Positions 2,836 through 55,198 of a DNA stretch of 64,000 nt are shown piece after piece (within the stretch, counting starts at the first letter, position 1; each line of letters starts with the position of its first letter). The DNA is taken from positions 431,424-495,423 of the forward strand of contig BPJI01000001.1 in NCBI GenBank assembly GCA_026004535.1. Reading direction: 5' to 3'. This stretch comes from Candidatus Parcubacteria bacterium (lineage in GTDB: Bacteria; Patescibacteriota; Minisyncoccia; UBA6257; HR35). The notes under the pieces were generated by a model. The model saw only the letters and a list, made by a program, of their open reading frames with translations. It ran no database searches and had not been told where the DNA came from. The position numbers were made by a program, and so were the translations under genes.

Positions 2836-3356
2836 TTTGTCTGTAAATTTAATTCAATATTCAAATTATTGTTAATTTTATCAATTTTAAAATTGATTGT
2901 TTGCCAAATTAAACCACTTTCAATCATAAAATTGGAAAATTTTTCCAAATCGCTCTCGGGCAACTGAAAAATAAAAGTTAATTTTTTTTCTTGTTGATTA
3001 AAACTTGTTGTTTGAATTGACCAATTCTCTTTTTGTAATTTTTCATTAACCAAATTTTTAGTTGTCTCAAAATCTCGATCTAATTTTTGATTAGCTTCAA
3101 ATAAAATTGTTTTTAATTCCTTACCAGTTTTTTGTTCAATCAAACTAACTATCTTTTTTATTTTATTTTGACTTTCAATTGTCGCTTGGTTTTGAATCAA
3201 TTTTTCTTTTAAATTATTAATCTCGTTTATTTTTGCCAAAGTTTTTTGGGAATAAAAATTAAGTATAAAAAAATAACCAACAGTTATCAGAAGAAAAATA
3301 AGAGTAAAAACAGCTATCTTTAAATAAATTTTATTTAATGTCTGATTATGGCCCAT
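2832..3356 (-). CDS. hypothetical membrane-anchored coiled-coil protein
   Basis: 174 aa with an N-terminal TM helix and a K/E/Q-rich coiled coil. It resembles PilN/PilO-type assembly proteins only in architecture. Confidence 0.35.
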   Translation of the reverse strand: MGHNQTLNKIYLKIAVFTLIFLLITVGYFFILNFYSQKTLAKINEINNLKEKLIQNQATIESQNKIKKIVSLIEQKTGKELKTILFEANQKLDRDFETTKNLVNEKLQKENWSIQTTSFNQQEKKLTFIFQLPESDLEKFSNFMIESGLIWQTINFKIDKINNNLNIELNLQTK

Positions 3357-3360
3357 TAAT

Positions 3361-3530
3361 TATTCATTACCCGGATATGGAACGGATAAATTAACTGGAT
3401 GTAAACCGGATGATATTATTAATTATTTTTACTCGGATTTACACCGGATAAACTACCCTGATTATAACCGGATATATCTGGTATTCATCCGGGTAATTAA
3501 TCAGGTATTTAATCCGGGTAATCTATTTAA
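3361..3530. repeat. ccggat-word repeat element (direct block, then inverted atccggg block)
   Basis: About a dozen (a)cccggat / aaccggat words at ~11-13 nt spacing, followed by the reverse-complement words catccgggtaa / aatccgggtaa. Confidence 0.8.
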
Positions 3531-5432
3531 TTATAACTCTTTTTCTTTAATTTCAACAAAAATTTCTAATTCCTCTTTAGTAATTATCTCTTCTTTAATT
3601 TTACCTAAATGTTCTAAGGGCGTAGCGAAAATTTCCTTGATAATTGCTCGAGGATTAATTTTGTTTTTCTTATTAAATTCCATTTGATATTTTCTTCTTC
3701 TTTGGGTTTCCTTTATGGCAGCTTCTAATGATTTGGTTATTTTATCAGCATACAAAATTACTTTACCTTCTAAATGACGAGCACTTCTCCCGATTGCTTG
3801 GATTAATGTTGTTGTATTTCTTAGAAATCCTTCGCGGTCAGCATCTAAGATAGCTACTAAGGAAACTTCAGGCAAATCTAATCCTTCTCTTAGAAGATTA
3901 ACTCCGACCAAAACCTCAATTTCGCCTGTTCTTAATTTTTTTATAATCTCTGCTCTTTTTAAGGTTTTAATATCTGAATGTAAATAGTTCGCTTTAATTC
4001 CCTGCTCTAATAAAAATTCAGTTAAATTTTCGGCTGATCTTTTAGTTAAAGTTAAAACCAAAACTCTTTGATTTTTATCAAGTCTTTCTTTTATCTCTTT
4101 TAATAAATCTAAAACTTGATTTTTAGTTGGTCGCACTTCAATTTCTGGATCTAAAATACCTGTTGGCCTTACTAGTTGTTCAACGATCTGCGAAGAAATT
4201 TTTCTTTCAAAAGGTCCAGGAGTTGCTGAAACAAAAATAATCTGGAAATTTTTATTGAAAAATTCATCAAATGTTAAAGGCCGATTATCGATTGCTGAAG
4301 GTAATCTCCAGCCATATTCAACTAAAATTTCTTTTCTTTTTCGATCACCATTAGCCATTGCTCTTAATTGAGGAATGGCTAAGTGCGATTCATCAATAAA
4401 CAAAATTGTTTCTGATGGTAAATAATCTAATAAAGTATATGGTGGTTCACCTGGATTTCGAAAAGATAAATGCCTTGAATAATTTTCAATTCCAGAACAA
4501 TAACCATATTTTTCTAAAAGATGAATATCTAACAAGGTTCTTTGTTTAATTCTTTCAGCTTCAACAATTCTTCCCTGCTCCAAAAATTGCCAATATCTTT
4601 CTTTTAATTCTTGTTTGATATTTAAGATAGCAATGTCTAATTTTTCTTTGGGGGTGACAAAAAATTTAGCTGGAAAGATTTTAATATATTCTAATTCTTC
4701 ATAATCTCCAGTTATTTCTAATTTAAAAACATCCTCTCTTGATTTTTTGATTGTAAATTTTTTAATTGATTTTATGATTTTGTTTTGCCATTTAATTTCT
4801 AACATATAACTTCCGTCAGGGTTAAAAATGTAAATTCCTGAATTTTCTCGGTCATAAATATATGTTCCTGATCTGATTGTATTCAAACTTCCTTTTTCAT
4901 ATTGTAATGTTTTTAAATAATCAATAACATCTTTAAGGGAAATTTTTTGGCCAACATTTAAATTTAAACAAATATTTTTATATTCTTCAGGATCACCAAT
5001 GCCATAAATACAACTAATTGAGGAGACAATAATAAAATCTTTTCTAGTTAAAACACTTTCAATGGCAGCATGACGAAGTTGATCTAAAAGCTCATTAATT
5101 CTTGCATCTTTAGCAATATAAATATCTGTTTCAGGTAAATAAGCTTCCGGCTGGTAATAATCATAATAACTAACAAAATAATGAACTGCATTTTCAGGAA
5201 AGAAATATTTAAATTCTTGATAAAGTTGAGCCGCCAAAACTTTATTAGGTGAAAGAACCAAAGCAGGCCTTTGAGTTTTATAAATAACATTAGCCATAGA
5301 AAATGTTTTTCCACTGCCAGTCACTCCTAAAAGTGTTTGAAATCTATAATTTTTATTCAATCCGGCAACTAACTTTCTAATTGCTTGAGGCTGATCTCCA
5401 GATGGTTTGTAATCCGAAATCAATTTGAACAT
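3531..5432 (-). CDS. uvrB: excinuclease ABC subunit B
   Basis: 633 aa. Walker A GVTGSGKTF, UvrB helicase motifs and a C-terminal UVR-like helix. Confidence 0.9.
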   Translation of the reverse strand: MFKLISDYKPSGDQPQAIRKLVAGLNKNYRFQTLLGVTGSGKTFSMANVIYKTQRPALVLSPNKVLAAQLYQEFKYFFPENAVHYFVSYYDYYQPEAYLPETDIYIAKDARINELLDQLRHAAIESVLTRKDFIIVSSISCIYGIGDPEEYKNICLNLNVGQKISLKDVIDYLKTLQYEKGSLNTIRSGTYIYDRENSGIYIFNPDGSYMLEIKWQNKIIKSIKKFTIKKSREDVFKLEITGDYEELEYIKIFPAKFFVTPKEKLDIAILNIKQELKERYWQFLEQGRIVEAERIKQRTLLDIHLLEKYGYCSGIENYSRHLSFRNPGEPPYTLLDYLPSETILFIDESHLAIPQLRAMANGDRKRKEILVEYGWRLPSAIDNRPLTFDEFFNKNFQIIFVSATPGPFERKISSQIVEQLVRPTGILDPEIEVRPTKNQVLDLLKEIKERLDKNQRVLVLTLTKRSAENLTEFLLEQGIKANYLHSDIKTLKRAEIIKKLRTGEIEVLVGVNLLREGLDLPEVSLVAILDADREGFLRNTTTLIQAIGRSARHLEGKVILYADKITKSLEAAIKETQRRRKYQMEFNKKNKINPRAIIKEIFATPLEHLGKIKEEIITKEELEIFVEIKEKEL

Positions 5433-5439
5433 GATATAA

Positions 5440-5530
5440 TTATATCACTGACATTGAACTAACAGAACTGACACTGAAACTTACAGAATTAATATAATCT
5501 AAGTTCCATAAGTTCTGCGTTTGTATATTC
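5440..5530. repeat. cagaac/gttctg-word repeat element in the uvrB / phosphohexomutase divergent intergenic region
   Basis: The words aacagaactgacactgaaacttacagaatt are followed by inverted ttccataagttctgcg. Confidence 0.6.
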
Positions 5531-5534
5531 CAAA

Positions 5535-6947
5535 ATGCTCTTAACTGGTTATGATTTAAGAGGTATTTTTAAAAAAGAATTGACTTTTGATGTTATTTAT
5601 CAAGCAACTAAACAGTTTTTTAAGAAATTAAAAATTAGAAAAGCCATTTTGGCTGTTGATGCAAATAGAAATAATTTTTTAATTAAAGATTTCTTAGAAA
5701 GAAATTTCAATCTTGAGTTTATTGGCGTTCTACCAACGCCAATTTTTTATTATAAAGTCATTAAAATAAAAATTCCTGGAATTATGATTACTGCTTCTCA
5801 TTTGCCTTTAAAATATTCGGGGTTGAAATTTATTTTAGAAAATGGCGAACCGTGGAAACCTTATATTAGCGCGTTGCCTTCGGGTCATACCCCCGAAGCC
5901 CACAGCCCTCGGAGTGCTATCGTACGCACCTCTGCCGGAATGACCCTCAGGCAAACGCGCCGGATAATTAATTTACAAAAGCACCAGATAATTAAGGAAT
6001 ATTTTAAAACTTTATTTTCTATCATCAAACCGAAAAAGAAAATTTTTGTTTGTTTTGATAAGAAAAATTTTTTTCTTAATGCTTCCCTACCCTATTTTGA
6101 AAAATTAAAAATTTTTCATCAAGATAATTCTCCAATTAAGATTAAATCTGATTTAGACAATGACAGAATTTTTGTTTATCTTAAAAAAAGAAAAATTCAT
6201 AATGATTTAATTTTTTATTATTTAGCTCTTTTGCCTCAATATAAGAAATTGGCTGTGCCAATATTTTTCAGTCAAAAACTAAGACAAGAACTTATTAAAA
6301 AAGGTAAGAAGATTTATTTTATTCCAACTGGACACTATTATTTCAAAAAAGCATTCAAAAAATATAATTTAGACTTAGGTTTTGAACCAAGTGGTCATTT
6401 TTATATGTTTAAAGATTTAAAAACAGAATCGCCCTATTTGGCCTTAGGTTTATTTTTACATTTATTAGCAGAACTTACGGACCTAACACAGACAGAACGG
6501 ACCAAACAGAGAATAGCCTTGGAGGAAATTTTAAAATTAAATAATTCACTTCAACTTTATCGTTTTGATATTAAGAAAATACAATCAGAAGAAAATGTTG
6601 TCTCTTTTTTGAAGAAGAGATATAAGTTAAAATTAAAAAAGTTTGACGGTTATTTATTATTTCCAAAGGAAAAAACAGAACTTACAAAACTAACACAGAA
6701 TTTAAATAAAAATACTATCGCAGAACTTACTGAACTAACACAGAACTTACAGAAAAATACTACCTCAGAAATTGCAGAACTAACACAGAACTCGCAGAAA
6801 AATTCAGTGAGTTCTGCGTCAGTTCAGCATGGTTCTGCGTTCTACCTGTATTTAAGGAAAAGCAAAACAGAAAATAAATTAAGAGTATCTTTTGAAGGCG
6901 ACAAAAAAATTCTCAAAGAAATAAAACAATGGCTCATGAAGATTTAA
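5535..6947 (+). CDS. phosphoglucomutase/phosphomannomutase-family protein carrying in-frame repeat insertions
   Basis: TASHLP (active-site Ser, SHNP-like) and GFEPSGH (GEESGH-like) phosphohexomutase motifs. Interrupted by a GC-rich ~100-nt insert and by ELTxLTQN repeat blocks. Confidence 0.6.
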   Translation: MLLTGYDLRGIFKKELTFDVIYQATKQFFKKLKIRKAILAVDANRNNFLIKDFLERNFNLEFIGVLPTPIFYYKVIKIKIPGIMITASHLPLKYSGLKFILENGEPWKPYISALPSGHTPEAHSPRSAIVRTSAGMTLRQTRRIINLQKHQIIKEYFKTLFSIIKPKKKIFVCFDKKNFFLNASLPYFEKLKIFHQDNSPIKIKSDLDNDRIFVYLKKRKIHNDLIFYYLALLPQYKKLAVPIFFSQKLRQELIKKGKKIYFIPTGHYYFKKAFKKYNLDLGFEPSGHFYMFKDLKTESPYLALGLFLHLLAELTDLTQTERTKQRIALEEILKLNNSLQLYRFDIKKIQSEENVVSFLKKRYKLKLKKFDGYLLFPKEKTELTKLTQNLNKNTIAELTELTQNLQKNTTSEIAELTQNSQKNSVSSASVQHGSAFYLYLRKSKTENKLRVSFEGDKKILKEIKQWLMKI

Positions 6948-8826: not shown

Positions 8827-8977
8827 TTTACGACGTCGTACGTCGTAAAGTAAATATAACGACGTGCGACGTCCAGATATTGAGAAAATAATATTTAGGA
8901 CATCGCACGTCTTAAATTATTTTCCGTGTCCGATTCCGTTCATTTCGCCTTTAAATTTTAGCACAATTTTCCACATC

Positions 8978-23700: not shown

Positions 23701-23800
23701 ACCCGGATAACCAACCGGATTATTTTACCCGGATGATTACCGGATAAATCCGGTTTATATCCAGGTAGTATTATCCGGTTAATATCCGGGTAAAAATATT
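23701..23800. repeat. ccggat-word repeat element
   Basis: acccggataaccaaccggatt..., then atccaggta / atccggtta / atccgggtaa. Confidence 0.75.
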
Positions 23801-26780: not shown

Positions 26781-27152
26781 CTATTTAATACCCGGCGATG
26801 ACACAATCAACACCCAACTTTTTTTAACTAAATCTGCTTCTTCTAAAATGGGGTCAATAACTCTTGAAACCTTGGCACAGTCTTCGATATTTACTCCTCC
26901 TTCTTTATCAATTTTAATTATTAAAGCAAATCTACCATTTTCACTACCGAATTGAATATCAAACAATTTATAACCCATATCCTCGATTACTTCTTCAATC
27001 AATTCTCTGACTTTTTCTTTTAGGTCCATTAGATAAGCCCGCTGACAGCTGAAGAAAATTTTTTCAGGGCGATGATAGCTGCGACATTTATCATATACAG
27101 CCGACAGCTGCTGAAATTTTTCAACCGCGGGCAGCTGCAGATATATATTCAT
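26781..27152 (-). CDS. rimP: ribosome maturation factor RimP, N-domain only; the ORF's first ~40 codons are a cagctgc repeat element
   Basis: MDLKEKVRELIEEVIEDMGYKLFDIQF...VLIVSSPGI matches the RimP N-terminal domain. The upstream in-frame extension (27030-27152) lies inside the cagctgc array. The usual C-terminal domain is absent. Confidence 0.55.
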   Translation of the reverse strand: MNIYLQLPAVEKFQQLSAVYDKCRSYHRPEKIFFSCQRAYLMDLKEKVRELIEEVIEDMGYKLFDIQFGSENGRFALIIKIDKEGGVNIEDCAKVSRVIDPILEEADLVKKSWVLIVSSPGIK

Positions 27153-27535
27153 TAGGCAGACAGCAGCGGAAAATCTTAAAACGCAGACAGCTGCGGAAAT
27201 GCTTTAACTACCCGGATGGTCTATCGGATATAATTACCCGGATAGCTTATCGGATAATGTTTATCCAGATGAATACCGGATTATTTTATCCGGATGATTA
27301 CCGGATATTTATCTAACCGGATAACTTACCGGATATAGTTACCCGGATAAACTAACGGATATAATTACCCGGATTAATAACCGGATAAAAATACTCTATA
27401 TATCATCCGGTCTATATCCGGGTAGTTCTATCCGGTTCATAGCCGGGTAGTATTATACGATTATAATCCGGGCAGAAAATATTTTCAGCTGCTGTCTGCG
27501 GTAAATACTCTGACCACTGCTGTCCATATTAATAA
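27040..27535. repeat. composite repeat hotspot: cagctgc block, ccggat direct+inverted block, ctgctgtc block
   Basis: 27040-27200 holds gacagctg / cagctgc words. 27205-27480 holds ccggat and atccgg words. 27481-27535 holds cagctgctgtctgcg. Confidence 0.8.
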
Positions 27536-27556: not shown

Positions 27557-28171
27557 ATGAAAAAATCAGCGGGAATTTTAATTTATAGAATAAAGCGGAA
27601 TCACACAGAACCAACACATAACTTACAGAAAAATTATGTCAATTCCGCGTCCGTTCTACATAGCTCAGCGTCTAAAAATAATTCAACGAGCTCAGCGTCG
27701 GTTCTGCGTAATTCTGCGGAAATAGAAGTTCTTTTAGTTCATCCTGGTGGACCATTTTATAAAAATAAAGATCTTTGGGATATACCAAAAGGTGAAATAG
27801 AAGAAAACGAAGAACCACTTCAGGCAGCCGTAAGAGAATTCAAAGAAGAAACGGGCTTGGTTTTTTCTTCCGATGATTTAAATAAAATTATTTTCTTTGA
27901 CAAATTTTTAAGACATACTGATAAAAAAACTATCTATATCTTTCTAATTGAAAAAAATTTTGGAAATAATTTAGTACCGAAAAGCAATTTTATCGAAATA
28001 GAATTTCCAGCTAAAAGTAAAAGATTTATAAAAATACCGGAAATTGATAAAATGGATTATTTTAATCTAAAAGAAGCTAAAGAAAAAGTTTTTCCCTGGT
28101 TAAAAGAATTGTTAGAAAAGTTTGAAAAATTTATTAATCAAGTTGATTTTGATCAAAAAATAAAAAATTAA
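27557..28171 (+). CDS. NUDIX hydrolase with an in-frame cagaac/gttctgcg repeat insertion near the N-terminus
   Basis: Nudix box GEIEENEEPLQAAVREFKEETG. The insert at 27597-27730 encodes NHTEPTHNLQKN...SASVLHSSAS..SASVLRNSAE. Confidence 0.75.
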   Translation: MKKSAGILIYRIKRNHTEPTHNLQKNYVNSASVLHSSASKNNSTSSASVLRNSAEIEVLLVHPGGPFYKNKDLWDIPKGEIEENEEPLQAAVREFKEETGLVFSSDDLNKIIFFDKFLRHTDKKTIYIFLIEKNFGNNLVPKSNFIEIEFPAKSKRFIKIPEIDKMDYFNLKEAKEKVFPWLKELLEKFEKFINQVDFDQKIKN

Positions 28172-32164: not shown

Positions 32165-33142
32165 TTAAAAAGTTTCAAAATAAGAAAATCTATTTTTTGC
32201 TTTTCGCCAAATAATTTCTATTTTTTCAACCTTAGCTAATATTGGTCCTCGTTTTATTTTTTCTAAAAATTCTTGTAAATTCTTTTCTTTACCTTGAGCT
32301 AAAACCTCAATACTGCCATCTGTTAAATTTTTAGCATAACCAAAAATTCCTAAATTTTGTGCCCAATTACGGCAAAATAATCTAAAACCAACTCTCTGTA
32401 CTCTGCCATAAACTTTGACGTAAAATTCTAAATAATCTTTCTCTATATCTTCAAAACTTAATGCTTCTTCCAAGGTAAATTCATTTATTTTAGTTCTAAC
32501 TAAAGATTTTAAATAAGCACCACAACCTAATTTTTGACCAATATCATGAGCTAAACTTCTAATATAAGTTCCTGATGAAACTTCAACTTCAATTTTAAGG
32601 ATCTTTTCTTTTAAATCTAAAATTTTAATATTATAAATTTTTACTTTTCTTGGTTTTAAATCAACCTTTAAGCCTTTCCTTGCTAATTTATATGCTCTTT
32701 TGCCTTTTATTTTTATAGCTGAATAAGGTGGAGGAATTTGTTCTATCTCGCCAATAAAACCTGCTAATATTTTTTCTATCTCTGATATATTTAGGTTCGT
32801 ATCAGTTCGCGTTAAGCCATGAACCAGAGCAGAGCTCGGTTCATGGTCCTGAACCCTTCGTGGTTCAGGATTCGCATCGGTTCGCACTATGTTTCCGGTT
32901 ATATCATAAGTATCAGAGATAGCACCTAATTCAATTTCAGCAATATAAGTTTTTCTACTTTCTTTTAAAAATTTTGTTAGTTCTTTTGTATAGTCATCAA
33001 TTCCCAAAATTAAAAGTCCTTCAGCAAAAGGATCTAATGTTCCTCCATGCCCAACTTTTTTCTTAGTTAATTTTTTAAAATAATTAACAATCTGAACAGA
33101 AGTATAATTTTGGGGTTTATTAAACAGAACTAATCCTTCCAT
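32165..33142 (-). CDS. truB: tRNA pseudouridine(55) synthase TruB fused to a C-terminal acylphosphatase-like domain; contains an in-frame ggttc-word insert
   Basis: N-terminal TruB (HGGTLDPFAEGLLILGI). C-terminal VYGRVQRVGFR ... GYAKNLTDGSIEVLAQG acylphosphatase signatures. GC-rich insert at 32795-32905. Confidence 0.7.
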   Translation of the reverse strand: MEGLVLFNKPQNYTSVQIVNYFKKLTKKKVGHGGTLDPFAEGLLILGIDDYTKELTKFLKESRKTYIAEIELGAISDTYDITGNIVRTDANPEPRRVQDHEPSSALVHGLTRTDTNLNISEIEKILAGFIGEIEQIPPPYSAIKIKGKRAYKLARKGLKVDLKPRKVKIYNIKILDLKEKILKIEVEVSSGTYIRSLAHDIGQKLGCGAYLKSLVRTKINEFTLEEALSFEDIEKDYLEFYVKVYGRVQRVGFRLFCRNWAQNLGIFGYAKNLTDGSIEVLAQGKEKNLQEFLEKIKRGPILAKVEKIEIIWRKAKNRFSYFETF

Positions 33143-34720: not shown

Positions 34721-37501
34721 TTAATATTTCATTTGCAACCTTATTTTTCTATTAATTTTTGCTTTTTCTAAAATAACATTCTTTGTTTTTTCAAATCGCT
34801 TAAAGTTTTCTTGGTTCAAAAATTCTTCAAGTTCTTTTTCCTCAACAAAAGCACCGATATAAGGAATTGTTGATTTTAATATTTTAATTAAAACAAAATC
34901 ACTTTTACCTGGCCCACCACCTTTTTCTTCTAATTTTTGCCAATTTTCTTTTAACCAATTAAAAGTGAATTTTGCTGCATTTGAATTTAAAGAAACTGAA
35001 TTGAAAAAGAAAATAGTCTGATTAAATCTAACTTGTGAAGAAAGAATAAATTCAAAAATAGAACTTAACTTTTCTAAATTTTGTAAATTACCAAAAGCAA
35101 TTAAACATTTATTTTGTTCTTCAATCAAATTAGTCTGATGATAATAATTCAAAAGTTTTTCTAAATAGTTATCATTAGCAATTAAAGCATTATTAAAGAT
35201 TGCTTGTTTAATATCAGGATGAAGTTTTTCTTTGTCTTTTAAAAATTCTTCAAATTTTTCTTGGCTGAAATCTAAAATCTCTTTATTCTTCAAAATTCCC
35301 AAAGAAAATAGAGTTTTTTGCCTTAAAACTGTTTCATAAGGTTGTTCACCTTCCCTCGGCTCTTTTCCTAAAATATCCAAAACTTTTAAAGAAAATTTTT
35401 CTAATAAAGCGGAAAGGTCAGAAACGGACGCGGAACGAACGGAATAAGCGGAACTGGTTTTTCCGTCTGTTCCATTTTTTCCGTGTCCGTTTCCGTCTGT
35501 TCTGCTTTGATCTGTATCAATTCTGCGCAGTTCCGCGTTTAGTCTGCGTTGGTCTACGTCTATCCTGCGTTGGTCTGCGTTTAGTAAATAATAATAAAAA
35601 TTTAAATAAGAAATAATTTCACTAAAAACAAAGGGTTTAGAATTATTGATAAAATATTTTTCTAAAATTTCTAAAAAGTTTTCAAAATTTTTCTCACCCT
35701 TTCTAACTAACATATCATAATCATGAACTAAATGAACCTGATCAATTTCATTTAATTTTTCTAAATTCTCTAAATTTCTTTTTAGAATTTCTTCATCATA
35801 ATCACTAACAAAAAAACTTGAATAGTTTTTATTAAGAATAAAAGTTGAAAAATTAGATTCAGGAATTGGGGCGATTTCTTCTTTTTCTTTTAATATTTTT
35901 CTTTCTTCTTTATTATCAATTTCAATCACAAAAGGAATTTTCCAATAATCTTCTCTGTCTTCTAAAAATAAGAATCTCCTTTGTCTTAAACAGTATCTGC
36001 CTTGCTCTTTTTTAAAACTTACCAAAGGATAGCCAACTTTTTCAATATAATCTTTCATAATCTCAACCACTGGCACACTCGAAACTTCTTCTAAGCATTG
36101 CCACAAATCTTCTGCTTTAGCATTTTGATAAGTAAATTTTTTAATATACAGCCTCAATCCTTCTCTAAATTTTTCTTCACCTAAATAATTCTCAATCATC
36201 CTTAAAACACTGCCACCTTTTTCATAAGATATCTCATCAAAAATTTCAACTGACTCATTTGGATCTTTAACCTCAACTTTAATCGGGTGAGAAGCAATCA
36301 AACCATCAGCATTCAAAGCACTAAAAACTTCATCCAAAACATATTTTTCTAAAATTCTCCAATTAGGATAAAAATTATTAACAGCTTTATAAGCTAAATA
36401 AGTGGCAAAGCTTTCATTTAACCATAAATCGTCCCACCACTTCATTGTTACTAAATTACCAAACCACATATGAACTAATTCATGAGCAATAACTTCAGCA
36501 ATTCTTTCTTGGGTAGATTTTGGTGTTATGCCTTCGAAAACTAAAAGTAAATTCTCGCGAAAAGTAATTGCTCCCCAATTTTCCATTGCTCCAGCAGCAA
36601 AATCAGGAACAGCGATTAGATCTAATTTTTTTAAGGGATAAGGGGAATCAAAATATTCTTCTAAATAATTTAAAAATTTTTTAGCATTTTCTAAAGCAAA
36701 TCTTACTCCTTCTAATTTTTCCTTTGGCGTAACTGCCACTCGAATAATAACTTCTTTATATTTATCTTCAACAAAATACCAATCACCAATTCCAATATAC
36801 AAAAGATAAGTTGACATCTTGGGAGTTGTTTCAAAAATCACTTTTTTCTTTTCATTAACAATTTCTTCTTTAATTGGCAAAGTATTGGAAATTGCTTTTA
36901 ATTCTTTAGGAAAAATTAAAGTTAAATCAAACGTTGCTTTTTTATCTGGGTCATCAAAACAAGGAAAAGCTTTGCGTGCTTCAATTGGTTCAAATTGAGT
37001 TGTGATTAAACATTTTTCTTGTTCTTTGTCTTTATATTTACTTAAATAAATTCCTCCTAAAACCTCTTTTAATTCTCCTTCAAAATCAATAAAAATAGTA
37101 TTATCTTTTTCAGAAAAATTATTTTTAATCAAAATTCCATCTTTTTGAACTTCAAAATCTACATCTTGGTCATTCACTTTTAGCTGATTAATTTTTAAAT
37201 CAACAGCATCAATTTTTAGAAAATTACCCCGATGATCACCTGATAGATTACCCGGATAATTGTCTGGCATATTACCCGGATAATCACTGGATAAATCCGG
37301 TTCATATTCGGGTAGTATTATCCGGTTAATATCCGGGTGGTTCCATCCGGTTTGAATCCGGGTAGCTGTATCTGGTTTTAATCCGGGTAAACTAATTCTT
37401 ATCTCTTCTCTGCCTCGATAAATATTCTTCTCTAAATCAAAGTCTAATTCAATTTTATAATTTCTAACTTCCATTATTTTTCCTTGATAAATTTTCAACA
37501 A
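34721..37501 (-). CDS. pepN: aminopeptidase N (M1 family) with in-frame repeat insertions
   Basis: GAMENWG exopeptidase motif and HELVHMWFGNLVT...WLNESFA zinc motif. The acggaa/ctgcg element at 35395-35580 and the ccggat element at 37228-37392 sit inside the ORF. Confidence 0.85.
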   Translation of the reverse strand: MLKIYQGKIMEVRNYKIELDFDLEKNIYRGREEIRISLPGLKPDTATRIQTGWNHPDINRIILPEYEPDLSSDYPGNMPDNYPGNLSGDHRGNFLKIDAVDLKINQLKVNDQDVDFEVQKDGILIKNNFSEKDNTIFIDFEGELKEVLGGIYLSKYKDKEQEKCLITTQFEPIEARKAFPCFDDPDKKATFDLTLIFPKELKAISNTLPIKEEIVNEKKKVIFETTPKMSTYLLYIGIGDWYFVEDKYKEVIIRVAVTPKEKLEGVRFALENAKKFLNYLEEYFDSPYPLKKLDLIAVPDFAAGAMENWGAITFRENLLLVFEGITPKSTQERIAEVIAHELVHMWFGNLVTMKWWDDLWLNESFATYLAYKAVNNFYPNWRILEKYVLDEVFSALNADGLIASHPIKVEVKDPNESVEIFDEISYEKGGSVLRMIENYLGEEKFREGLRLYIKKFTYQNAKAEDLWQCLEEVSSVPVVEIMKDYIEKVGYPLVSFKKEQGRYCLRQRRFLFLEDREDYWKIPFVIEIDNKEERKILKEKEEIAPIPESNFSTFILNKNYSSFFVSDYDEEILKRNLENLEKLNEIDQVHLVHDYDMLVRKGEKNFENFLEILEKYFINNSKPFVFSEIISYLNFYYYLLNADQRRIDVDQRRLNAELRRIDTDQSRTDGNGHGKNGTDGKTSSAYSVRSASVSDLSALLEKFSLKVLDILGKEPREGEQPYETVLRQKTLFSLGILKNKEILDFSQEKFEEFLKDKEKLHPDIKQAIFNNALIANDNYLEKLLNYYHQTNLIEEQNKCLIAFGNLQNLEKLSSIFEFILSSQVRFNQTIFFFNSVSLNSNAAKFTFNWLKENWQKLEEKGGGPGKSDFVLIKILKSTIPYIGAFVEEKELEEFLNQENFKRFEKTKNVILEKAKINRKIRLQMKY

Positions 37502-39840: not shown

Positions 39841-39990
39841 ATTTTTACCCAGATTATAACCAGATAATACTACCCGGATATTAACCGGATATAACTACTC
39901 GGATTCAAACCGGATACAAATACCCGGATATAAACCGGTATTCATCCGGGTAATCTATCCGGTATTAATCCGGGCATATTAATAAAATCT
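39841..39990. repeat. ccggat-word repeat element
   Basis: taacccagat / aaccagat / acccggat words, then catccgggtaa / atccggtatt / aatccgggca words. Confidence 0.8.
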
Positions 39991-45818: not shown

Positions 45819-45914
45819 TTTTAAAACATGAAATCTAAATAATATAAAATATCTAAATTTTATGTAAAAATAACCAAATTAAATATAACACAAAATAAAC
45901 AAAAAAACCAAAAT

Positions 45915-45956
45915 GGTCAATTTTTCTATTGCTACGTAGCAATAGAAAAATTGACC
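45915..45956. promoter_or_regulatory. perfect 42-nt palindrome (candidate operator or terminator) upstream of the yerC-like gene
   Basis: ggtcaatttttctattgctacgtagcaatagaaaaattgacc equals its own reverse complement. Its core TGCTACGTAGCAATAG recurs at 45289-45304 and 10592-10607. Confidence 0.6.
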
Positions 45957-46009
45957 AAATTAGGGATAATTAAAGATGAGTTTTTGATTTATAATTTAAT
46001 TAAACACAA

Positions 46010-47454: not shown

Positions 47455-47512
47455 TTAGTATAGTCTGCGTAGTTCTGCGTTAGTTCTGCATAAGTCTGCG
47501 GTTTATTTTAGA
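47455..47512. repeat. ctgcg-word repeat element
   Basis: tagtctgcgtagttctgcgttagttctgcataagtctgcgg. Confidence 0.6.
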
Positions 47513-48027: not shown

Positions 48028-48059
48028 TGTATTTAACTAGAACTAACATAAGAGATTAA

Positions 48060-48116
48060 ATAATTTATTGATTTCTGTAGGTTCTGTATTAGTTCTGTTA
48101 GTTCTGTGTGTTTAAT
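48060..48116. repeat. gttctgt-word repeat element
   Basis: ttctgtaggttctgtattagttctgttagttctgtgtg. Confidence 0.6.
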
Positions 48117-49614
48117 TTTTAACAACGACCTTTTTAATAATTGACCCTTGTTTAGTATCTTCAATTTTATAACCAGCTTCCAATACTTCTTCTCTAATTT
48201 TATCAGCTTCCTGCCACTTCCCTTCTTTTCTTAATCTTTCTCTTAATAAAACTTTCTTTTTAATTTCAGCTGGTAATTTTTGTTTTGCTAAAAATTCTTT
48301 GAATCCTAACCCCAAAATTTTATCAGCCTCTAAAACAAAAATTTTTTTAAATTTTAAATCTTCATCTGACTTTAAAATTTCCCATAATTTAGCAATTAAT
48401 CGAGGAGTATCAAGATCATAATTAACAATATTTAATATTTCTTTAAAAGCAGAATTATGCAGAACTAAATCAGAACTACCCAGAGCCGAGACTCGCTTGT
48501 CGCCAAATAGTGATTTATACAAATTAATAGAAAGATTAAAGCTGGAGATCGTCTCTAAAAGTAAGTTATATGCATTTTGAGCTGATTCCATTGCTTGCCA
48601 AGTAAAATTCATTTCTGAACGATAATGTGAGGTTAAAACTAAATATCTAAAAGCAAGCGGTTGAAAACCTTTTTTCTCAATATCTTCTAAAGTAATAATA
48701 TTTCCTAAACTTTTCGCCATTTTCTCTCCCTCAACTTTTAAAAAATTTACATGAAGCCAATAATTAACAAATTTTTTACCAGTTGCTGCTTCTGATTGAG
48801 CAATTTCATTAGTATGATGAATATCAATGTGATCAATACCGCCAGTATGAATATCGATTGTTTTACCTAAATATTTCATTGACATTGCTGAACATTCAAT
48901 ATGCCAACCAGGAAAACCAATGCCCCAAGGACTTCTCCATTCCATTTGTCTTTTCACATCTTTAGGTGAAAATTTCCATAGAGCAAAATCATACGGATTT
49001 CTTTTTTCAGGATTTATCTCAACTCTCGCGCCAGCTAATAATTTTTTCCTTTTAATTTGGGCCAATATACCATAATTTTTAAACTTAGAAGTGTCAAAAT
49101 AAATGCCATCTGAAATTTTGTAAGTATAGCCCTTTTTTTCTAAAATCTTTATAAGCTCAATCATTTCTTTTATATGCTGAGTTGCTCGAGGAAACTTAAA
49201 AGGAGTTTTGATATTTAATTTTTTAATATCTTCCTTGAAAATTTTTTCAAAATAACGTGCAATTTCCCAAGCAGTTTTTCTTTTTTCTCTGGCACTTTTT
49301 TCAATTTTATCTTCACCAGTATCAGCATCAGAGGTTAAATGTCCAACATCAGTAATGTTAATAATTTGTTTTACTTTATAGCCATTATACTCAAGTGTTC
49401 TTCTTAAGGTATCGGCAAAAATATAAGCTCTTAAATTACCAATATGAGGTCTTTCATAAACAGTTGGCCCACAATTATACATCGTTACTATCTTATCTTT
49501 CAAAGGTTTAAATTTTTCTTTTCTTCGAGTTAAGGTATTAAATAGATAAAGAGGCTCCATTAATTTAATTATAATTCGGTAATATCTCTTGGTAAAAATA
49601 AATTCAAAATCCAA
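48112..49614 (-). CDS. cysS: cysteine--tRNA ligase
   Basis: HIGNLRAY (HIGH motif) and KMAKSLGN (KMSKS motif). Confidence 0.9.
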
Positions 49615-51002
49615 TCAATAAATGTTTTAACTTGATCTCGAAAAGAAATCATTTTGCTTAAATAAACTCCTTTCCAAATAAACCAACTAATTAAACCAGA
49701 AAATTCAATTCCTTTAATTTCACCTAAGGCATAAAACCTACCAACTGAAATCAAATCGCCAGCATGTTTATAAATAAATTTCTGCAATGGTTTATTTTCA
49801 ATTAAATTTTTAATATTTAAAGCAACTAATTTTGCTTGTCTAACTGCAACTTGAGCTAATTGTGGTAATGGTTTTTGATCTTGAATAAAACAACAAACAT
49901 CACCAATTGCAAAAACATTATCATATACAGAACTACTCAGAACTGATGCAGGACTGACTGAATTATCTTTGGTTGCAGAACTATACTGAACTGACACTGA
50001 ACTAACAGAATTATTCTGTGAGTTCTGTATTGGTTCTGTATGTTCTGCATTATTCTGCAAATTCTGTGTAAGTTCAGCTCTTTCTGCGTCTATTTTCTTT
50101 TTCACCTGCAAATATTCATTTAAAACTAGTCTTCCTTTATTATCTTTTTCAACGTTACCAATAATTTCTGGTAAATTTGGTTCAACTCCTGCTGTCCAAA
50201 TAACTGTTTTTGTTTCAATAACATTACCGTCATCAAGTTTAATAAAATCTTCACCAACCTCAATTACTCCTTTTTCTAGTCTAACATCAACTTTTAATTT
50301 TTTTAACCTTTCAAGTGCTTTTTGTCTTAATTTTGGAGAAAATTGAGGAATTAATTCTTTGCCTTTTTCGATTAGAATTATTTTAACTTGTGAAATTAAA
50401 TCTGATGAATATAATTTACTAAATGTTTTATAAAACAAATCACTCATTTCACCAGCCAATTCAACTCCTGTTGCTCCACCTCCAACAATGACAAAAGTGA
50501 GATATTTATTTACCTTTTCTGGATATAAACTTCCTATTTCAAACATATGAACAAATCTATTTTTCAATCTTATAGCGTCATCAATTGTTTTTAAGGAAAA
50601 ACTATATTCTTTAGCCCCAGGAATATTGTAATAATTTGTTTTCGAACCTAAGGCAATAACTAGATAATCATAATTAACATTATAATCTTCTCTTTCTTTA
50701 TTTATGTAAACAATTTTGTTCTCTAAATCAATTTTTTCAACTTCTCCATGAACAAAATCAAAATCACAACATCTAATAATTTCTCTTATGGGTTCTAGGG
50801 CATTATCAATCGAAACTCCGCCAGTAGCAACTTCATGAAGTAAAGGCGTAAAAATAAAATAATTCTTTTTATTCACCAATACTAATTTTACTTTCTTATT
50901 ATGAAAAAGTTTATGTAAATGTTTTAAAGCATAAACACCACCAAATCCTCCACCTAAGATTACTATCTTCATTAAATAATCGGAAATAACGGAAACAAAC
51001 AC
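49569..51002 (-). CDS. ndh: type II NADH dehydrogenase / pyridine nucleotide-disulfide oxidoreductase with an in-frame cagaac/gttctg repeat insertion
   Basis: [12 protein letters not shown] motif and a second Rossmann motif [11 protein letters not shown]. The insert at 49925-50100 encodes [34 protein letters not shown]... Confidence 0.75.
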
Positions 51003-51110
51003 GGAATGAGCGGAAGAAACGGAAAAAACTCCGTTAATTCCGATAGTCAGCTTCTTCCGTGTTATGTCGTTCTTTCCGTTAATTCCGTGTTAAGTTCCGC
51101 AAGTTCTGTT
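50980..51110. repeat. acggaa-word repeat element (direct block, then inverted ttccgt block)
   Basis: aatcggaaataacggaaacaaacacggaatgagcggaagaaacggaaaa, then ctccgttaattccg...ttccgtg...ttccgtt...ttccgtg. Confidence 0.8.
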
Positions 51111-51113
51111 AAT

Positions 51114-51512
51114 TTAGAACAAACTAAGACTGAATGGCCAAGGCTGAGGAACAAAGAGTAAGGCTAAAACTCCTGCCCAGATAGCCATATTCTTCATGAA
51201 ATTAATCATTTCCATCATTTTCACTTGTGGATCTTGGACCGTCCAAAAATTATGAATCATAAATGTAACAGGCAAAAAGAAAAGCGTTAGAGCTAAAACT
51301 CCGACTTGAATATAAGCACCAAATAAAATTGAAAATCCACCAATTAAAAGTAAAAGACCTGTAACAATGACAGACAATTTAGGAGCTGGTACATTTTTAG
51401 TTTGAGCATACTGAGACATCATATTCAGATTTTTAAAATGATTAAAACCACTAAACAAAAAATAAAAACCCAAAATTACTCTTGAAAGTAGCAGAATGTA
51501 ATCTGAAATCAT
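51114..51512 (-). CDS. DoxX-like small membrane protein
   Basis: 132 aa with 4 TM helices. Confidence 0.45.
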   Translation of the reverse strand: MISDYILLLSRVILGFYFLFSGFNHFKNLNMMSQYAQTKNVPAPKLSVIVTGLLLLIGGFSILFGAYIQVGVLALTLFFLPVTFMIHNFWTVQDPQVKMMEMINFMKNMAIWAGVLALLFVPQPWPFSLSLF

Positions 51513-51540: not shown

Positions 51541-52845
51541 TTAAATTTTAGCACAAATTTCTAATAATCTATTATATTTTACTACTCTTTCACCTTGTAA
51601 AGGAACACCGATTTTAAAATAATCTGCACCAAAAGCAATTCCTAAATCAATTAGCCAATTATCATTTGTTTCGCCACTACGATGTGAAAAAATAGTAAAT
51701 AAATTATTTTCTTTGGCTAATTTAACAAAATTAAATGTTTCAGTTATGGTGCCGATTTGATTAGGTTTGACAATTACACCATCAACAGAATTTTTCTCTA
51801 AAGCAATTTTTAATCTTTCAATATTGGTCACTGTTAAATCATCGCCAATTACTTTAAATCCTTCTTTACGAAGTTCAGCAAATTTTTCAAATTCATTTTC
51901 TTTATATGGATCTTCTAAATATTTAACACCCAAAATTTTTAATTTTCGATAAACATTCTTCCAATTAACTATATTTGTTATTTGATTAGCAGCAATATCA
52001 GCTCCAAGCTCAAAATAAAAATTATTACCCGGATGATTACCGGATAAATCCGGTTTATATCCGGGTAAATTATCCGTATCCGGTTTAAATCCGGGCAACT
52101 TATCCGGTTGTAATCCGGGTAAATTATCCGGTTCATATCCGGATAAATTACTAGTTACTTCTTTTAAATATAAAAAAGGTTCATAATTATCACTAAAGTT
52201 TGTACAAAATGCTCCTTCATCGTTTCTTCCTAATGGTTTAGGCAATTTTTTTTCAATCTGATTAATAATACTAATGATCTTAGCGATTAAAAGTTCAAAA
52301 TATGCAGCATTGAAAGAATTTTTCCGTAAGTTCTGCGTCAGTTCCGTGTAGTGCTGTGTTATTAACCAATATTCCTGAAAATCTAAATTATTAAAAGAAT
52401 GCACTCCTCCACCAATAATATTTAAAATTAATCTTAGCATTCGTGTAGACTCGTCCTTATTTATTCGTGTAGATTCGTTTTTTAAATATTCAAACAACTC
52501 CAAATTTTTACTTTTAGCTAGAGCTCGAGCAAAACTGATTGAAACTCCTAAAGTAAAATTACCTCCTAATTTTTCTTTATTCTTCCCTGCTCTTTCAATT
52601 AAAAATTCATCTAATTCATTAAGATTTTGAAAATCTTTATTTTTTATATCTTTCAAAAATTCGCTTAAATTCTTTTTAATTTTTTCACAATCTAAACAAA
52701 CAACCTCATGAGAACCGATACTTTTCCCAGAAGGAATTGACGCTTTTTCTTTTATTCCTTCACTTTCAATCTCAACCTCGATTGTCCATTCTCCTCTTGA
52801 GTCTAAAATTTTATTTACTTTTATATCATTTATTTTCATCTTCAA
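51541..52845 (-). CDS. eno: enolase (phosphopyruvate hydratase) carrying three in-frame repeat-element insertions
   Basis: ILDSRGEWTIEVEI N-terminus, NDEGAF, YLEDP, IGDDLTVTN, KPNQIG, SHRSGETND and KYNRLLEI catalytic motifs. Inserts at 52024-52150 (ccggat), 52325-52360 (cagaac/ctgcg) and 52436-52480 (cgtgtagac). Confidence 0.85.
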   Translation of the reverse strand: MKMKINDIKVNKILDSRGEWTIEVEIESEGIKEKASIPSGKSIGSHEVVCLDCEKIKKNLSEFLKDIKNKDFQNLNELDEFLIERAGKNKEKLGGNFTLGVSISFARALAKSKNLELFEYLKNESTRINKDESTRMLRLILNIIGGGVHSFNNLDFQEYWLITQHYTELTQNLRKNSFNAAYFELLIAKIISIINQIEKKLPKPLGRNDEGAFCTNFSDNYEPFLYLKEVTSNLSGYEPDNLPGLQPDKLPGFKPDTDNLPGYKPDLSGNHPGNNFYFELGADIAANQITNIVNWKNVYRKLKILGVKYLEDPYKENEFEKFAELRKEGFKVIGDDLTVTNIERLKIALEKNSVDGVIVKPNQIGTITETFNFVKLAKENNLFTIFSHRSGETNDNWLIDLGIAFGADYFKIGVPLQGERVVKYNRLLEICAKI

Positions 52846-55198
52846 ATTTTTTAACTATCTCAATTGTCTTTATCACTACATCACTATTAACACTTATACT
52901 TTCAATTCCTTCTTTAACTAAAAGTTCAACGATTTCTGGAAAATCACTCGGTGCCTGTCCGCAAATTCCTACATATTTCTTCTTTTCTTTACATTTTTTA
53001 ATTACTTCACTAATTAATTTTTTGACTGATTCATTTCTTTCATCTGCTAAGCTCTGTAAAATTTCATTATCTCGATCAATTCCTAAAGTAAGTTGGGTTA
53101 GATCATTCGAACCAATTGACATTCCGTCAAAAAATTCTAAAAATTCATCTACTTGTAGAATATTTGAAGGTATTTCAGCCATTACATAAACTTTATAATT
53201 TTTTTCTTTTTTTTGACCTAAAATATTTTCGATTATTTCCATAACTTTTCTTCCTTCTTCAGGTGTTCGGCAAAACGGTACCATCATTGCTAAGTTTGAA
53301 ATCCTCATTTCCTCTCTAACTTTTTTCATTGCTAATACTTCAAGCTCAAAAGCTTGCTTAAATTTTGGATGATAATATCTACTTGCTCCTCGCCAACCGA
53401 TCATTGGATTTTCTTCTTCTGGTTCATAAAGATCTCCGCCAATTAAATTTCGATACTCATTGGTTTTAAAATCAGAAAACCTAACAATTACTTCATAGGG
53501 CCAATAAGCAACACAGATTTTAGCAATTCCTTCGGCTAATTTGTCAATAAAATATTGTTTTTTATTTTTATAGCCTCTGGTTAATTCATCAATTTTTTCT
53601 TTTATTTCCTCAGATAAATTAGGATAATCAATTAAAGCATTGGGATGAATTTTTATTTCTTCAGCAATAATAAATTCTTCTCGGGCAAGTCCAACGCCTT
53701 TAACTGGTAAGTACCACTTCTCCCAAGCTTCATCAGGAAGTCCAATATTGACATATATTTTTGTTTTTGTTTCTGGTAAATTTTCTAAATTATGCTCAAT
53801 AACTTCGTAATCAAGATTTCCTTTATAAACATAACCTGTAATTCCGGTAGAACAATCAATTGTCACTTCATCGCCTGTTTTTAAAACTTCTGTTGCCTTT
53901 TGAGTGCCAACAATTGCTGGAATGCCTAATTCACGAGATACTATTGCCGCATGACAAGTTCTTCCTCCTTTATCAGTAATTATTCCCTTGGCAATTTTCA
54001 TTATCGGCACCCAATCTGGGTCAGTCATTTCAGTAACTAAAATTTCTCCTTCTTGAAATTCATTTATTTTAGAAACATCTTTAATAACTCTTACTTTACC
54101 CGAAGCTATTTTTGAGCCAATAGCGATGCCTTTTAAAATAATTTCACCTTTTTCTTTTAATTTATATTCTTCATAAACATTATATTTTTTAGTTGAATGA
54201 ACTGTTTCAGCTCTTGCTTGAACAATATAGAGCTTGCCATCAATTCCATCTTTGGCCCATTCAATATCCATTGCTCTTCCATAATGTTTTTCGATAATTA
54301 ATCCCATCTTAGCCAACTCTAAAACTTCGTCATCATTCAAAGAATAATTTGTTTTTTCTTCTTCTTTTGTCTCTATTTCTTTTACACCTCTTTCTTCAGC
54401 ATAAATAATTTTTTTCACTTTCTCGCCTAATCTTTTACAAATAATACTTCCAAATCCTCTTTCTAAGCCCTCTTTAAAAACTATCCATTCATCAGGAATT
54501 ACTTTTCCTTGAACAATCAGCTCACCTAATCCCCAGACTCCATTAATAACAATAACTTTATTTAAACCAGAATCGGAATCAATCGTAAACATTACTCCAG
54601 AACTAGCCAAATCAGATCTTATCATTTTTTGAACACCAACAGAAAACTTAACCTGAAAATGATCAAATCCTTTTTCTTGTCTGTAAAAAATAGCTCTATC
54701 AGTAAACAAAGAAGCAAAACAATATTTTATTTTTTCTAAAAGATCTTTTTCAGTTACATTTAAATAAGTTTCTTGCTGCCCAGCAAATGATGCATCAGGA
54801 AGATCTTCGGCTGAGGCGCTACTTCTTACGGCAACTTGTAAATCTTCTCCATATTCTTCTTTTAGTTTCTCAAAAGCACCTAATATTTCCTTTTTAAAAT
54901 CTTCAGGAAATTCACCTTGTTTAATTAAATTTCTAATTATTTCTCCTGCTTTTTGTAATTTTTCAACATTATAGACATCTAAATTTTTTAAAGTTTCTTT
55001 AATTTTTTCTTCTAAGTTGTTATATTTTATAAAATAGTCATAAGCTTTAGTTGTAATTGCAAAACCGTTAGGAACCCTAACTCCTAAATCTGACAATTTC
55101 TGATACATCTCACCTAAATTAGCATTTTTTCCACCAACTATGCCAACGTCTTCTTTTTCAATCTCATTAAACCACAAAATATATTTTTCTTCCTTCAT
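52826..55198 (-). CDS. ppsA: phosphoenolpyruvate synthase (pyruvate, water dikinase)
   Basis: 790 aa. N-terminal WFNEIEKEDVGIVGGKNANLGEM, phospho-His motif GGRTCHAAIVSRELGIPAIVG, C-terminal PEP-utilising TIM barrel. Confidence 0.85.
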   Translation of the reverse strand: MKEEKYILWFNEIEKEDVGIVGGKNANLGEMYQKLSDLGVRVPNGFAITTKAYDYFIKYNNLEEKIKETLKNLDVYNVEKLQKAGEIIRNLIKQGEFPEDFKKEILGAFEKLKEEYGEDLQVAVRSSASAEDLPDASFAGQQETYLNVTEKDLLEKIKYCFASLFTDRAIFYRQEKGFDHFQVKFSVGVQKMIRSDLASSGVMFTIDSDSGLNKVIVINGVWGLGELIVQGKVIPDEWIVFKEGLERGFGSIICKRLGEKVKKIIYAEERGVKEIETKEEEKTNYSLNDDEVLELAKMGLIIEKHYGRAMDIEWAKDGIDGKLYIVQARAETVHSTKKYNVYEEYKLKEKGEIILKGIAIGSKIASGKVRVIKDVSKINEFQEGEILVTEMTDPDWVPIMKIAKGIITDKGGRTCHAAIVSRELGIPAIVGTQKATEVLKTGDEVTIDCSTGITGYVYKGNLDYEVIEHNLENLPETKTKIYVNIGLPDEAWEKWYLPVKGVGLAREEFIIAEEIKIHPNALIDYPNLSEEIKEKIDELTRGYKNKKQYFIDKLAEGIAKICVAYWPYEVIVRFSDFKTNEYRNLIGGDLYEPEEENPMIGWRGASRYYHPKFKQAFELEVLAMKKVREEMRISNLAMMVPFCRTPEEGRKVMEIIENILGQKKEKNYKVYVMAEIPSNILQVDEFLEFFDGMSIGSNDLTQLTLGIDRDNEILQSLADERNESVKKLISEVIKKCKEKKKYVGICGQAPSDFPEIVELLVKEGIESISVNSDVVIKTIEIVKKFEDENK

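Follow-up and report, generated by a model that had tools for sequence, protein, structure and literature searches.

We analyzed a 64-kb stretch (the window, by which we mean the whole stretch of DNA) of the 556-kb genome of a Candidatus Parcubacteria bacterium, in which a gene for a PGM/PMM-like phosphohexomutase (PGM) is interrupted in frame by arrays of short words of the cagaac type. These arrays are probably copies of a single selfish DNA element, dispersed and imperfectly palindromic, that is tolerated in protein loops in the sole reading frame left open. The element spans ~80 to 170 nt, and its arms are built of 9- to 11-nt words. At least nine copies or remnants that align to one consensus occur in the 64 kb, six of the nine inside open reading frames (ORFs) and three in intergenic DNA. 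The window is AT-rich, with 24 to 33% GC in 2-kb windows.

The PGM gene (5535..6947, plus strand) encodes 470 residues with Pfam matches to domains I and III and a weak match to domain IV, and its product is identical to P0001, a protein from an NCBI metagenome-assembled genome annotated as Candidatus Parcubacteria. The catalytic motifs TASHLP (Ser88), DLDNDR, EPSGH, and RKSKTEN are intact and occupy invariant columns of a 20-sequence alignment; therefore, the enzyme is probably still functional with its inserts. A preliminary description of this sequence had placed two cagaac blocks in the C-terminal region, and we found them at 6469-6519 and 6675-6842. Insert a (block 1; 6469..6519, plus strand) is a half element with left-arm words only (gcagaacttacggacctaacacagacagaacgg...) and reads AELTDLTQTERTKQRIA. 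Insert b (block 2; 6675-6842, plus strand) is whole and reads TELTKLTQNLNKNTIAELTELTQNLQKNTTSEIAELTQNSQKNSVSSASVQHGSAF. Its left arm (6675..6803, plus strand) consists of ACAGAACTNAC-type words, reads (A)ELT(E/K)LTQNLxKNT, and comprises 2.8 tandem copies with a period of 45 nt (15 codons) and 85% matches (Tandem Repeats Finder, 6676-6803). The right arm (6804..6842, plus strand) carries the inverted words AGTTCTGCGTCAGTTCAGCATGGTTCTGCG, reads SVSSASVQHGSA, and forms a long hairpin with the left arm. Insert b includes an inverted repeat (I22) of 27 nt, 81% complementary with a 3-nt loop, and its RNA fold has a z score of -5.1 relative to shuffled sequences.

Comparison with 19 homologues identified block 2 as a 56-residue insertion and block 1 as a 13- to 17-residue insertion; the insertion first put at about 75 residues is therefore real but amounts to ~70. 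The block 2 insert is entirely absent from 17 of the 19 homologues, and the base protein has ~385 to 392 residues. Six recurrent hot-spot loops are visible in the PGM alignment, and in other lineages these hold different palindromic word peptides (PGYKPD...SGNHPGN, PN...FG, and TRTNAD...LSLRKSA, for example). In an AlphaFold2 model based on this alignment, the predicted local distance difference test (pLDDT) score drops below 50 at exactly three PGM inserts (residues 117-136, 317-327, and 380-433), and the flanking strands are predicted with confidence. An independent Logan assembly (contig L064) matches the PGM gene exactly. We considered an assembly artifact as the source of the arrays and ruled it out on the basis of this identical independent assembly and of orthologous copies in other genomes. 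L064 and a second Logan contig, L001, both from run DRR290133, represent two Parcubacteria with 67%-identical PGM genes in one sample; both contigs are ~2 kb long, and short-read assembly may break at repeat arrays.

Copies of the same element lie in four further genes of the window. The preliminary description had reported the same words in the same frame in NUDIX, ndh, and eno, and all three were borne out. The NUDIX hydrolase gene (27557..28171) contains a full copy (27596..27724, plus strand) that reads RNHTEPTHNLQKNYVNSASVLHSSASKNNSTSSASVLRNSAEI, with a fold z score of -2.8, and the Pfam NUDIX match begins only past this insert. A second full copy (49932..50093, minus strand; fold z score, -7.2) lies in the NDH-2 gene (49569..51002), immediately before the AIGD motif. 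In a comparison with a solved NDH-2 structure (PDB 9mqy), query residues 293-359 of NDH-2 fall opposite a gap that lies between residues 300 and 311 of the chain, and an orthologous NDH-2 copy is present in the sister genome KatS3mg095 (L168). The enolase gene (51541..52845) carries a truncated left-arm copy (~52318..52365, minus strand) that reads TELTQNLRKNS. At the same enolase site, protein P0103 (genome GCA_026004515.1) has a full two-arm element, TELTQNSQNKTELTRNSQKNSESSASSASVLYSSAS, and minimal enolases of the clade have no sequence there. A PDB alignment had suggested that the enolase copy was a same-length replacement of native sequence; this was wrong, since the minimal clade enolases are shorter and the copy is an insertion.

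Four copies were missing from the preliminary description. One is a right-arm remnant in the CysRS gene (48112..49614; remnant at ~48455..48490, minus strand), where the insert is ~11 residues longer than the L168 orthologue. The other three are intergenic, with no strand assigned. The first lies between the divergent uvrB and PGM genes (5447..5525) and forms a weak hairpin (z score, -0.6). The second (47455..47502) mixes GTTCTGCG with GTCTGCG words and so joins the cagaac family to the (c)gcagac family. The third, downstream of CysRS (48040..48111), consists of gttctgtattagttctgttagttctgtg and a degenerate opposite arm. PGM block 1 and the enolase copy are thus half elements of left-arm words only, and the CysRS remnant is a right arm. 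The core enzymes PGM, enolase, NDH-2, NUDIX, and CysRS contain up to three in-frame palindromic inserts each.

The eight larger copies share the core CAGAAC.TACAGAACTAACACAGAACTTACAGAAAAAT followed by inverted AGTTCTGCGTCAGTTC, and the peptides of the three full genic copies are colinear. Word counts in the window greatly exceed those of shuffled controls: ACAGAACT has 10 matches versus 1.5 expected, and AGTTCTGCGTCAGTTC, with up to three mismatches, has 11 versus 0.17 expected. The 21-mer ACACAGAACTTACAGAAAAAT, again with up to three mismatches, has seven matches versus 0.01 expected, all of which are genic, lie on the sense strand, and read TQNLQKN. Each genic copy has a length that is a multiple of three and is free of stops in the host frame. 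In the PGM insert b and NDH-2 copies, only one of the six frames is stop-free, and it is the gene frame; the others contain one to eight stops. A common frame among genic copies is therefore expected, because only one frame is open in the long copies. The preliminary description had named differing frames and unavoided stops as the outcome that would speak against a module, and neither was seen among the genic copies. This test is unable to separate a peptide module from a selfish element, however, because selection against broken genes predicts the same result.

Comparisons between genomes point to turnover of copies. The L001 PGM orthologue has decayed inserts at both PGM sites. For the host core, pN/pS (the ratio of nonsynonymous to synonymous divergence) is 0.21, with 80% amino acid (aa) identity and 83% nucleotide identity. 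The corresponding values are 0.95, 44%, and 74% for insert a and 0.87, 36%, and 55% for insert b. Between copies, pN/pS ranges from 0.4 to 1.0. L168 also carries cagaac-family copies at these sites in NDH-2 and enolase, and its PGM gene has an empty site. The similarity of copies does not track the orthology of their sites: window PGM insert b and the nonorthologous L168 NDH-2 copy are identical at 105 of 117 positions (90%), and the paralogous L168 NDH-2 and enolase copies are identical at 97 of 106 (92%), versus 83% between the orthologous NDH-2 copies of the window and L168 and 69% between the orthologous PGM insert b copies of the window and L001. Host synonymous divergence (pS) between the window and L168 is 0.40 to 0.49. 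From these sequences we infer that the copies moved recently, underwent gene conversion with one another, or were exchanged between genomes that co-occur.

Two inserts of other kinds were seen in genes of the window. The PGM gene contains a GC-rich insert (5865-5968, plus strand) of 104 nt with 61% GC, compared with ~28% GC for the genome. It has a closing stem, GCGCGTTGCCT...AGGCAAACGCGC, and a branched fold (z score, -5.1), is translated in frame as SALPSGHTPEAHSPRSAIVRTSAGMTLRQTRR with pLDDT below 50, occurs once in the window, is missing from the L001 orthologue, and has no Rfam match. In the TruB gene (32165..33142), a GC-cored hairpin (32795-32885, minus strand) flanked by ACGCGAAC-type words reads RTDANPEPRRVQDHEPSSALVHGLTRTDTN. 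This TruB element is identical at 85 of 91 nt (93%) to an insert in the N terminus of L168 NDH-2, a different host gene.

Further dyad word arrays in the window are built on CCGGAT, CACGGAT, CGGAA, and ACGTCG. Ten of the 15 dyad word arrays fall within the 12% of the window that lies outside ORFs of at least 100 aa, and others lie inside the enolase and M1 peptidase genes. A syntenic JGI genome has a like architecture with CCGGAT, ACGGAT, and ATTCGG words; judged from these sequences, the word-array phenomenon is clade-wide. The GCAGAC and cagaac words are one base apart, occur intermingled at 47455-47502 and in the P0102 enolase insert, and share the frame A[DE][YL]TQ[NT].

The CCGGAT/ATCCGG family, with a period of ~25 nt, has genic arrays in enolase (52025-52146, minus strand) and M1 peptidase (37295-37389, minus strand) and intergenic arrays at 3355-3522, 10332-10527, 12295-12606, 23713-23795, 27205-27472, and 39846-39973. 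The enolase array is translated as SGYEPDNLPGLQPDKLPGFKPDTDNLPGYKPDLSGNHPGNN, and this family and frame recur in PGM and enolase homologues of other genomes. Arrays of CGGAA/TTCCG, GTCTGCG, CACGGAT/ATCCGTG, and ACGTCG words lie at 35406-35585 (minus strand, in the M1 peptidase gene), 18256-18353, 50973-51116, 16378-16634, and 8828-8911, and one such array is translated within the 926-residue M1 aminopeptidase (...RRLNAELRRIDTDQSRTDGNGHGKNGTDGKTSSAYSVRSASVSD...). Between rimP (26781..27152, minus strand) and NUDIX, a nested composite (27105-27520) has outer arms of the cagacagc(a/t)gcgg type around a CCGGAT-family dyad array; its outer left arm overlaps rimP codons 1 to 16, and the RimP Pfam match begins only at residue 51. 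A perfect palindrome of 22 + 22 nt without a loop (45914-45957, TGGTCAATTTTTCTATTGCTAC/GTAGCAATAGAAAAATTGACCA), which is intergenic beside a Trp-repressor-like gene, is unrelated to the word arrays.

In related genomes, sister word arrays flank a candidate mobilizing enzyme. We found an in-frame GxxExxY domain (TIGR04256/PF13366; E = 4e-35 and 8e-30) at hot-spot loop 1 or 3 of 13 enolases in a set of 120 homologues. In all 13 nuclease-bearing enolases, the printed flanks are word-array peptides (left, PN/PG/HELNTN; right, FG/SG/IRDKF). The domain is also found in frame in the NDH-2 gene of contig L169 (L169:12303-12895), between (C)GCAGAC and GTCTGCG arms. In the four cases that we followed in detail at the DNA or peptide level, which belong to the GCAGAC, CCGGAT, CCGAAT, and ACGAAT families, the nuclease sits between a left array and an inverted right array. 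Shared 6-mers between the arms are mostly inverted: 23 inverted versus 2 direct in the L170 enolase gene (3001-4920; CCGGAT arms), 30 versus 2 in the L171 enolase gene (3001-4893; CCGAAT arms), and 14 versus 3 in L169 NDH-2 (GCAGAC arms). Enolases P0113 (arms only) and P0128 (arms plus nuclease) have their element at one site, and their left arms there are almost identical.

The function of the GxxExxY family is listed as "Unknown" (PMC3424549), and our literature search on GxxExxY or PF13366 found almost nothing. A profile search of the nuclease against PDB gave T7 endonuclease I as the best match, which was not significant (E = 0.42); a single PHROGs family, itself of unknown function, was matched, and PADLOC had no match. 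Another selfish insertion is present in the same gene neighborhood: the L168 PPDK gene (L168:6130-10014; 1,294 residues) contains an intein with Hint and LAGLIDADG domains, and the window PPDK (52826..55198, 790 residues) lacks one.

Several explanations other than a selfish element were weighed. The preliminary description had proposed a reusable in-frame module, which stands insofar as no fewer than five unrelated housekeeping genes share one unit, invariably in the sense orientation and read as (A)ELTQNLQKN...SVSSASV. It does not stand as a functional peptide: that ELTQNLQKN...SVSSASV is a selected flexible linker or surface interaction patch recruited into several enzymes seems to us unlikely. 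Such a role would fit the shared orientation and frame of all genic copies, their colinear peptides, the high similarity across genomes, and pN/pS values lower than 1 (0.42 to 0.72) for some pairs of copies and for the orthologous NDH-2 insert. However, the family has intergenic copies, the shared frame is forced by the single open frame, and the PGM inserts are near neutral (pN/pS, 0.87 to 0.95) and are modeled with pLDDT below 50. The inserts are missing from the majority of homologues, the sister genome has an empty PGM site, half copies are tolerated, and other lineages have unrelated word peptides in these loops. Apart from the query protein itself, there is also no convincing carrier among 1.84 billion representative proteins: a peptide profile returned only that protein as a strong match plus five unrelated tandem-repeat proteins, in a library that keeps one representative per 50%-identity cluster and so conceals true carriers, P0103 among them. 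The 56-residue insert peptide was also used in a word-indexed protein search, which was uninformative: no candidate had three 5-residue words in common with it, and nothing was returned. Local expansion by replication slippage, arising independently in each gene of an AT-rich genome, is less credible still, and we regard it as very unlikely. Low-complexity inserts in Plasmodium proteins provide a parallel, and the 45-nt unit repeated 2.8 times in PGM, the low GC content (24 to 33%), and the low-complexity, hydrophilic inserts agree with slippage; yet the loci share an exact 16-mer and the 21-mer (up to three mismatches; seven matches versus 0.01 expected), align over 45 to 120 nt, and recur nearly identically in different genes of different genomes, and the dyad symmetry found throughout is not produced by slippage alone.

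If the arrays were instead binding platforms for a host protein involved in nucleoid organization, replication or segregation, or transcription termination, the genic copies would be by-products. Word spacing of ~9 to 12 bp, about one helical turn, the intergenic location of most dyad arrays, and DNA conservation between genomes beyond neutral expectation all suit this idea, which we nevertheless find improbable, as several unrelated word families show one architecture within one genome, and copy number and arm length vary freely. Presence or absence differs between sister genomes, the arrays show no consistent context, falling at promoters, at gene ends, and in enzyme interiors, and some family members have a nuclease ORF of their own, as is typical of selfish elements. 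It is also highly improbable that the hairpins are intervening sequences that are cut out of the mRNA or skipped by the ribosome, such that the peptides are never made. The mRNA hairpins are strong, and these genomes contain other intervening elements, as in the L168 PPDK intein, but genic copies are multiples of three and stop-free in the host frame, with the other frames rich in stops, and neither excision nor bypass would need this. Neither the hairpins nor the GC-rich insert has an Rfam intron or ribozyme match, and Pfam detected no Hint domain in four host proteins.

Some observations weigh against a selfish element or limit what it explains. At the orthologous NDH-2 insert pN/pS is 0.44, and constraint on the peptide, the hairpin, or the words may act at some copies. 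Because the copy identities were taken from local alignments of repetitive words, they are somewhat too high, although the contrast among equally scored pairs holds. Reading the junctions gave no obvious target-site duplication in the form of a flanking direct repeat, and the relatives are too diverged (pS, 0.4 to 0.5) for comparison with empty sites at the DNA level. The copies were counted in 64 kb of a 556-kb genome. Searches for the 21-mer core in genome contigs (62 loci) and metagenome contigs (101 loci), collections that do not contain the source genome, gave isolated single matches only, save for a few contigs. These exceptions, L083 (570-665), L046, and L028 (6390-6536), are seemingly Bacteroidota/Bacteroidales contigs with hairpins or tandem repeats of CACAGAA/TTCTGTG words, which are probably coincidental and of independent origin. 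The case for translation of the inserts comes from their open frames.

A mobilizing enzyme in the window itself is likewise missing. We detected no transposase, REP-associated tyrosine transposase (RAYT), or integrase in the 64 kb, where Pfam scans of 59 of the 61 ORFs of at least 100 aa gave only housekeeping families; the two ORFs outside these scans lie within larger genes on the opposite strand. By tblastn, no GxxExxY domain was found in the window, L166, or L168. No nuclease was seen between cagaac arms themselves, and the link comes from a sister word family in another genome. Because these three sequences contain no GxxExxY domain and the window contains no transposase-like gene, the connection of the nuclease to the cagaac family is one that we infer.

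With these points in mind, we envisage a selfish palindromic element whose genic copies lie in variable loops and are read as hydrophilic, low-complexity segments (ELTQNLQKN...SVSSASV). It can grow by in-frame tandem duplication, as with the 45-nt units in PGM, and shrink to half elements, as in PGM block 1, enolase, and CysRS. Selection would purge every genic insertion that breaks the frame or the fold. The family would be mobile now or have been so recently, or it may have been homogenized by gene conversion or exchange between co-occurring Parcubacteria. The driver may be the GxxExxY PD-(D/E)XK nuclease, in which case the window copies would be arms-only (miniature) derivatives and the repeated words could serve as multisite protein-binding ends, akin to the subterminal repeats of transposons. 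More tentatively, we suggest that the word-array hairpins of this Parcubacteria clade, including the cagaac family, could derive, as arms-only forms, from a class of mobile element not yet described, in which a 125-residue GxxExxY nuclease lies between inverted arrays of short binding words. We see this as a possibility worth pursuing more than as an expectation. Such an element would insert in frame in essential genes and be translated with the host protein, its arms acting as flexible linkers, and repair triggered by the nuclease would spread and homogenize copies within and between genomes.

By analogy, the closest known counterpart is the Rickettsia palindromic element (RPE); in-frame palindromic repeats in housekeeping genes have been known since 2000 (Ogata et al. 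2000; PMC10969869). RPEs are dispersed palindromic repeats of ~100 to 150 bp, many of them in frame in unrelated housekeeping genes (PMC10969869), with a conserved peptide per family at sites compatible with the fold, a small host genome, and no transposase in the element. The window shows the same combination of a dispersed repeat in many copies, a hairpin palindrome, and in-frame housekeeping insertions with a conserved peptide. The hosts differ, being Parcubacteria of the candidate phyla radiation (CPR) here and not Rickettsiales, and we liken the elements by description, not by sequence. The arms here are arrays of 9- to 11-nt words in variable number, several word families coexist per genome, and elements related to those of the window have, at the apex, a GxxExxY PD-(D/E)XK nuclease in frame. 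We know of no comparable nuclease partner for RPEs. To our knowledge, the enzyme that mobilizes RPEs is still unidentified, and their movement and relevance to proteins remain unsettled.

[quoted passage not shown] They are mostly intergenic with occasional in-frame genic insertions, and both here and in MITEs, long (protein-coding) and short (arms-only) versions occur at one site. The two arms of our element, as inverted word arrays, correspond to terminal inverted repeats. The differences are that the candidate parent here is a 125-residue PD-(D/E)XK domain translated in frame with the host and not a stand-alone transposase, that no target-site duplication was apparent on reading the junctions, and that the whole short element is a hairpin and not unique DNA between short terminal repeats. 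An autonomous parent is suggested by the (c)gcagac and three other word families that flank the GxxExxY domain in related genomes.

Repetitive extragenic palindromic (REP) sequences, bacterial interspersed mosaic elements, and the REPIN-RAYT system (PMC3116915, PMC3733652) are similar as many-copy, clustered hairpin repeats that fill intergenic DNA, and a nuclease or transposase of their own is presumed to move them in trans. By definition, however, REPs lie outside genes, and they carry GTAG/CGTC tags and have a Y1 (HUH) transposase partner; in the window, six of the nine copies lie in ORFs, and neither a purely extragenic location nor a RAYT gene was found. PARCELs (PMC2996958) resemble our element as coding DNA with dyad symmetry, from which similar, tandemly variable peptides can be read and which is apparently mobile between genomes. 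Their 25-residue amphipathic domains make up most of unannotated and often membrane-targeted ORFs, whereas here 15-residue hydrophilic units occupy loops of conserved enzymes; we set the two apart by description.

Coding palindromes in the mitochondria of Nematomorpha (PMC6649704) are long inverted repeats that lie in frame in the essential genes of a genome that is reduced and AT-rich; both of their arms are translated. Those repeats are organellar, perfect, and gene specific and do not form a dispersed word-array family. Mobile GC clusters in yeast mitochondrial genes are a further analogue, also organellar. Inteins and homing endonucleases share with these elements selfish in-frame insertion in conserved housekeeping genes, the use of the same permissive sites across lineages, and relatives that encode a nuclease. 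No Hint domain was found here, however; the nuclease belongs to the PD-(D/E)XK (GxxExxY) type and not to LAGLIDADG, HNH, or GIY-YIG, and the mature protein apparently retains the insert, which is flanked by linkers that the repeats encode. None of the window copies has its own ORF, and an element-encoded endonuclease, GxxExxY, is found in related elements elsewhere. Our literature search found no report of such elements in CPR/Patescibacteria. New here are the CPR host, the arms built as arrays of short words, and, in related genomes, arms of four other word families that flank a GxxExxY nuclease.

These results document an RPE-type phenomenon in a CPR bacterium with a genome of ~0.56 Mb, in which families of elements fill most of the intergenic space. 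Such inserts make predicted proteins longer and distort them, leave structure models with low-confidence segments, may fragment short-read assemblies, and hamper the annotation of CPR genomes by homology. They are also a natural setting in which to study the tolerance of essential proteins for large insertions, whether disordered or domain-sized. The occurrence of arms-only and arms-plus-nuclease versions at one loop, together with near-identical copies across genes and genomes, provides a concrete and testable candidate for a mobilizing enzyme. If the proposed class of nuclease-bearing elements is real, it would give the uncharacterized GxxExxY family (TIGR04256/PF13366) a function and would supply a mechanism for RPE-like coding palindromes.

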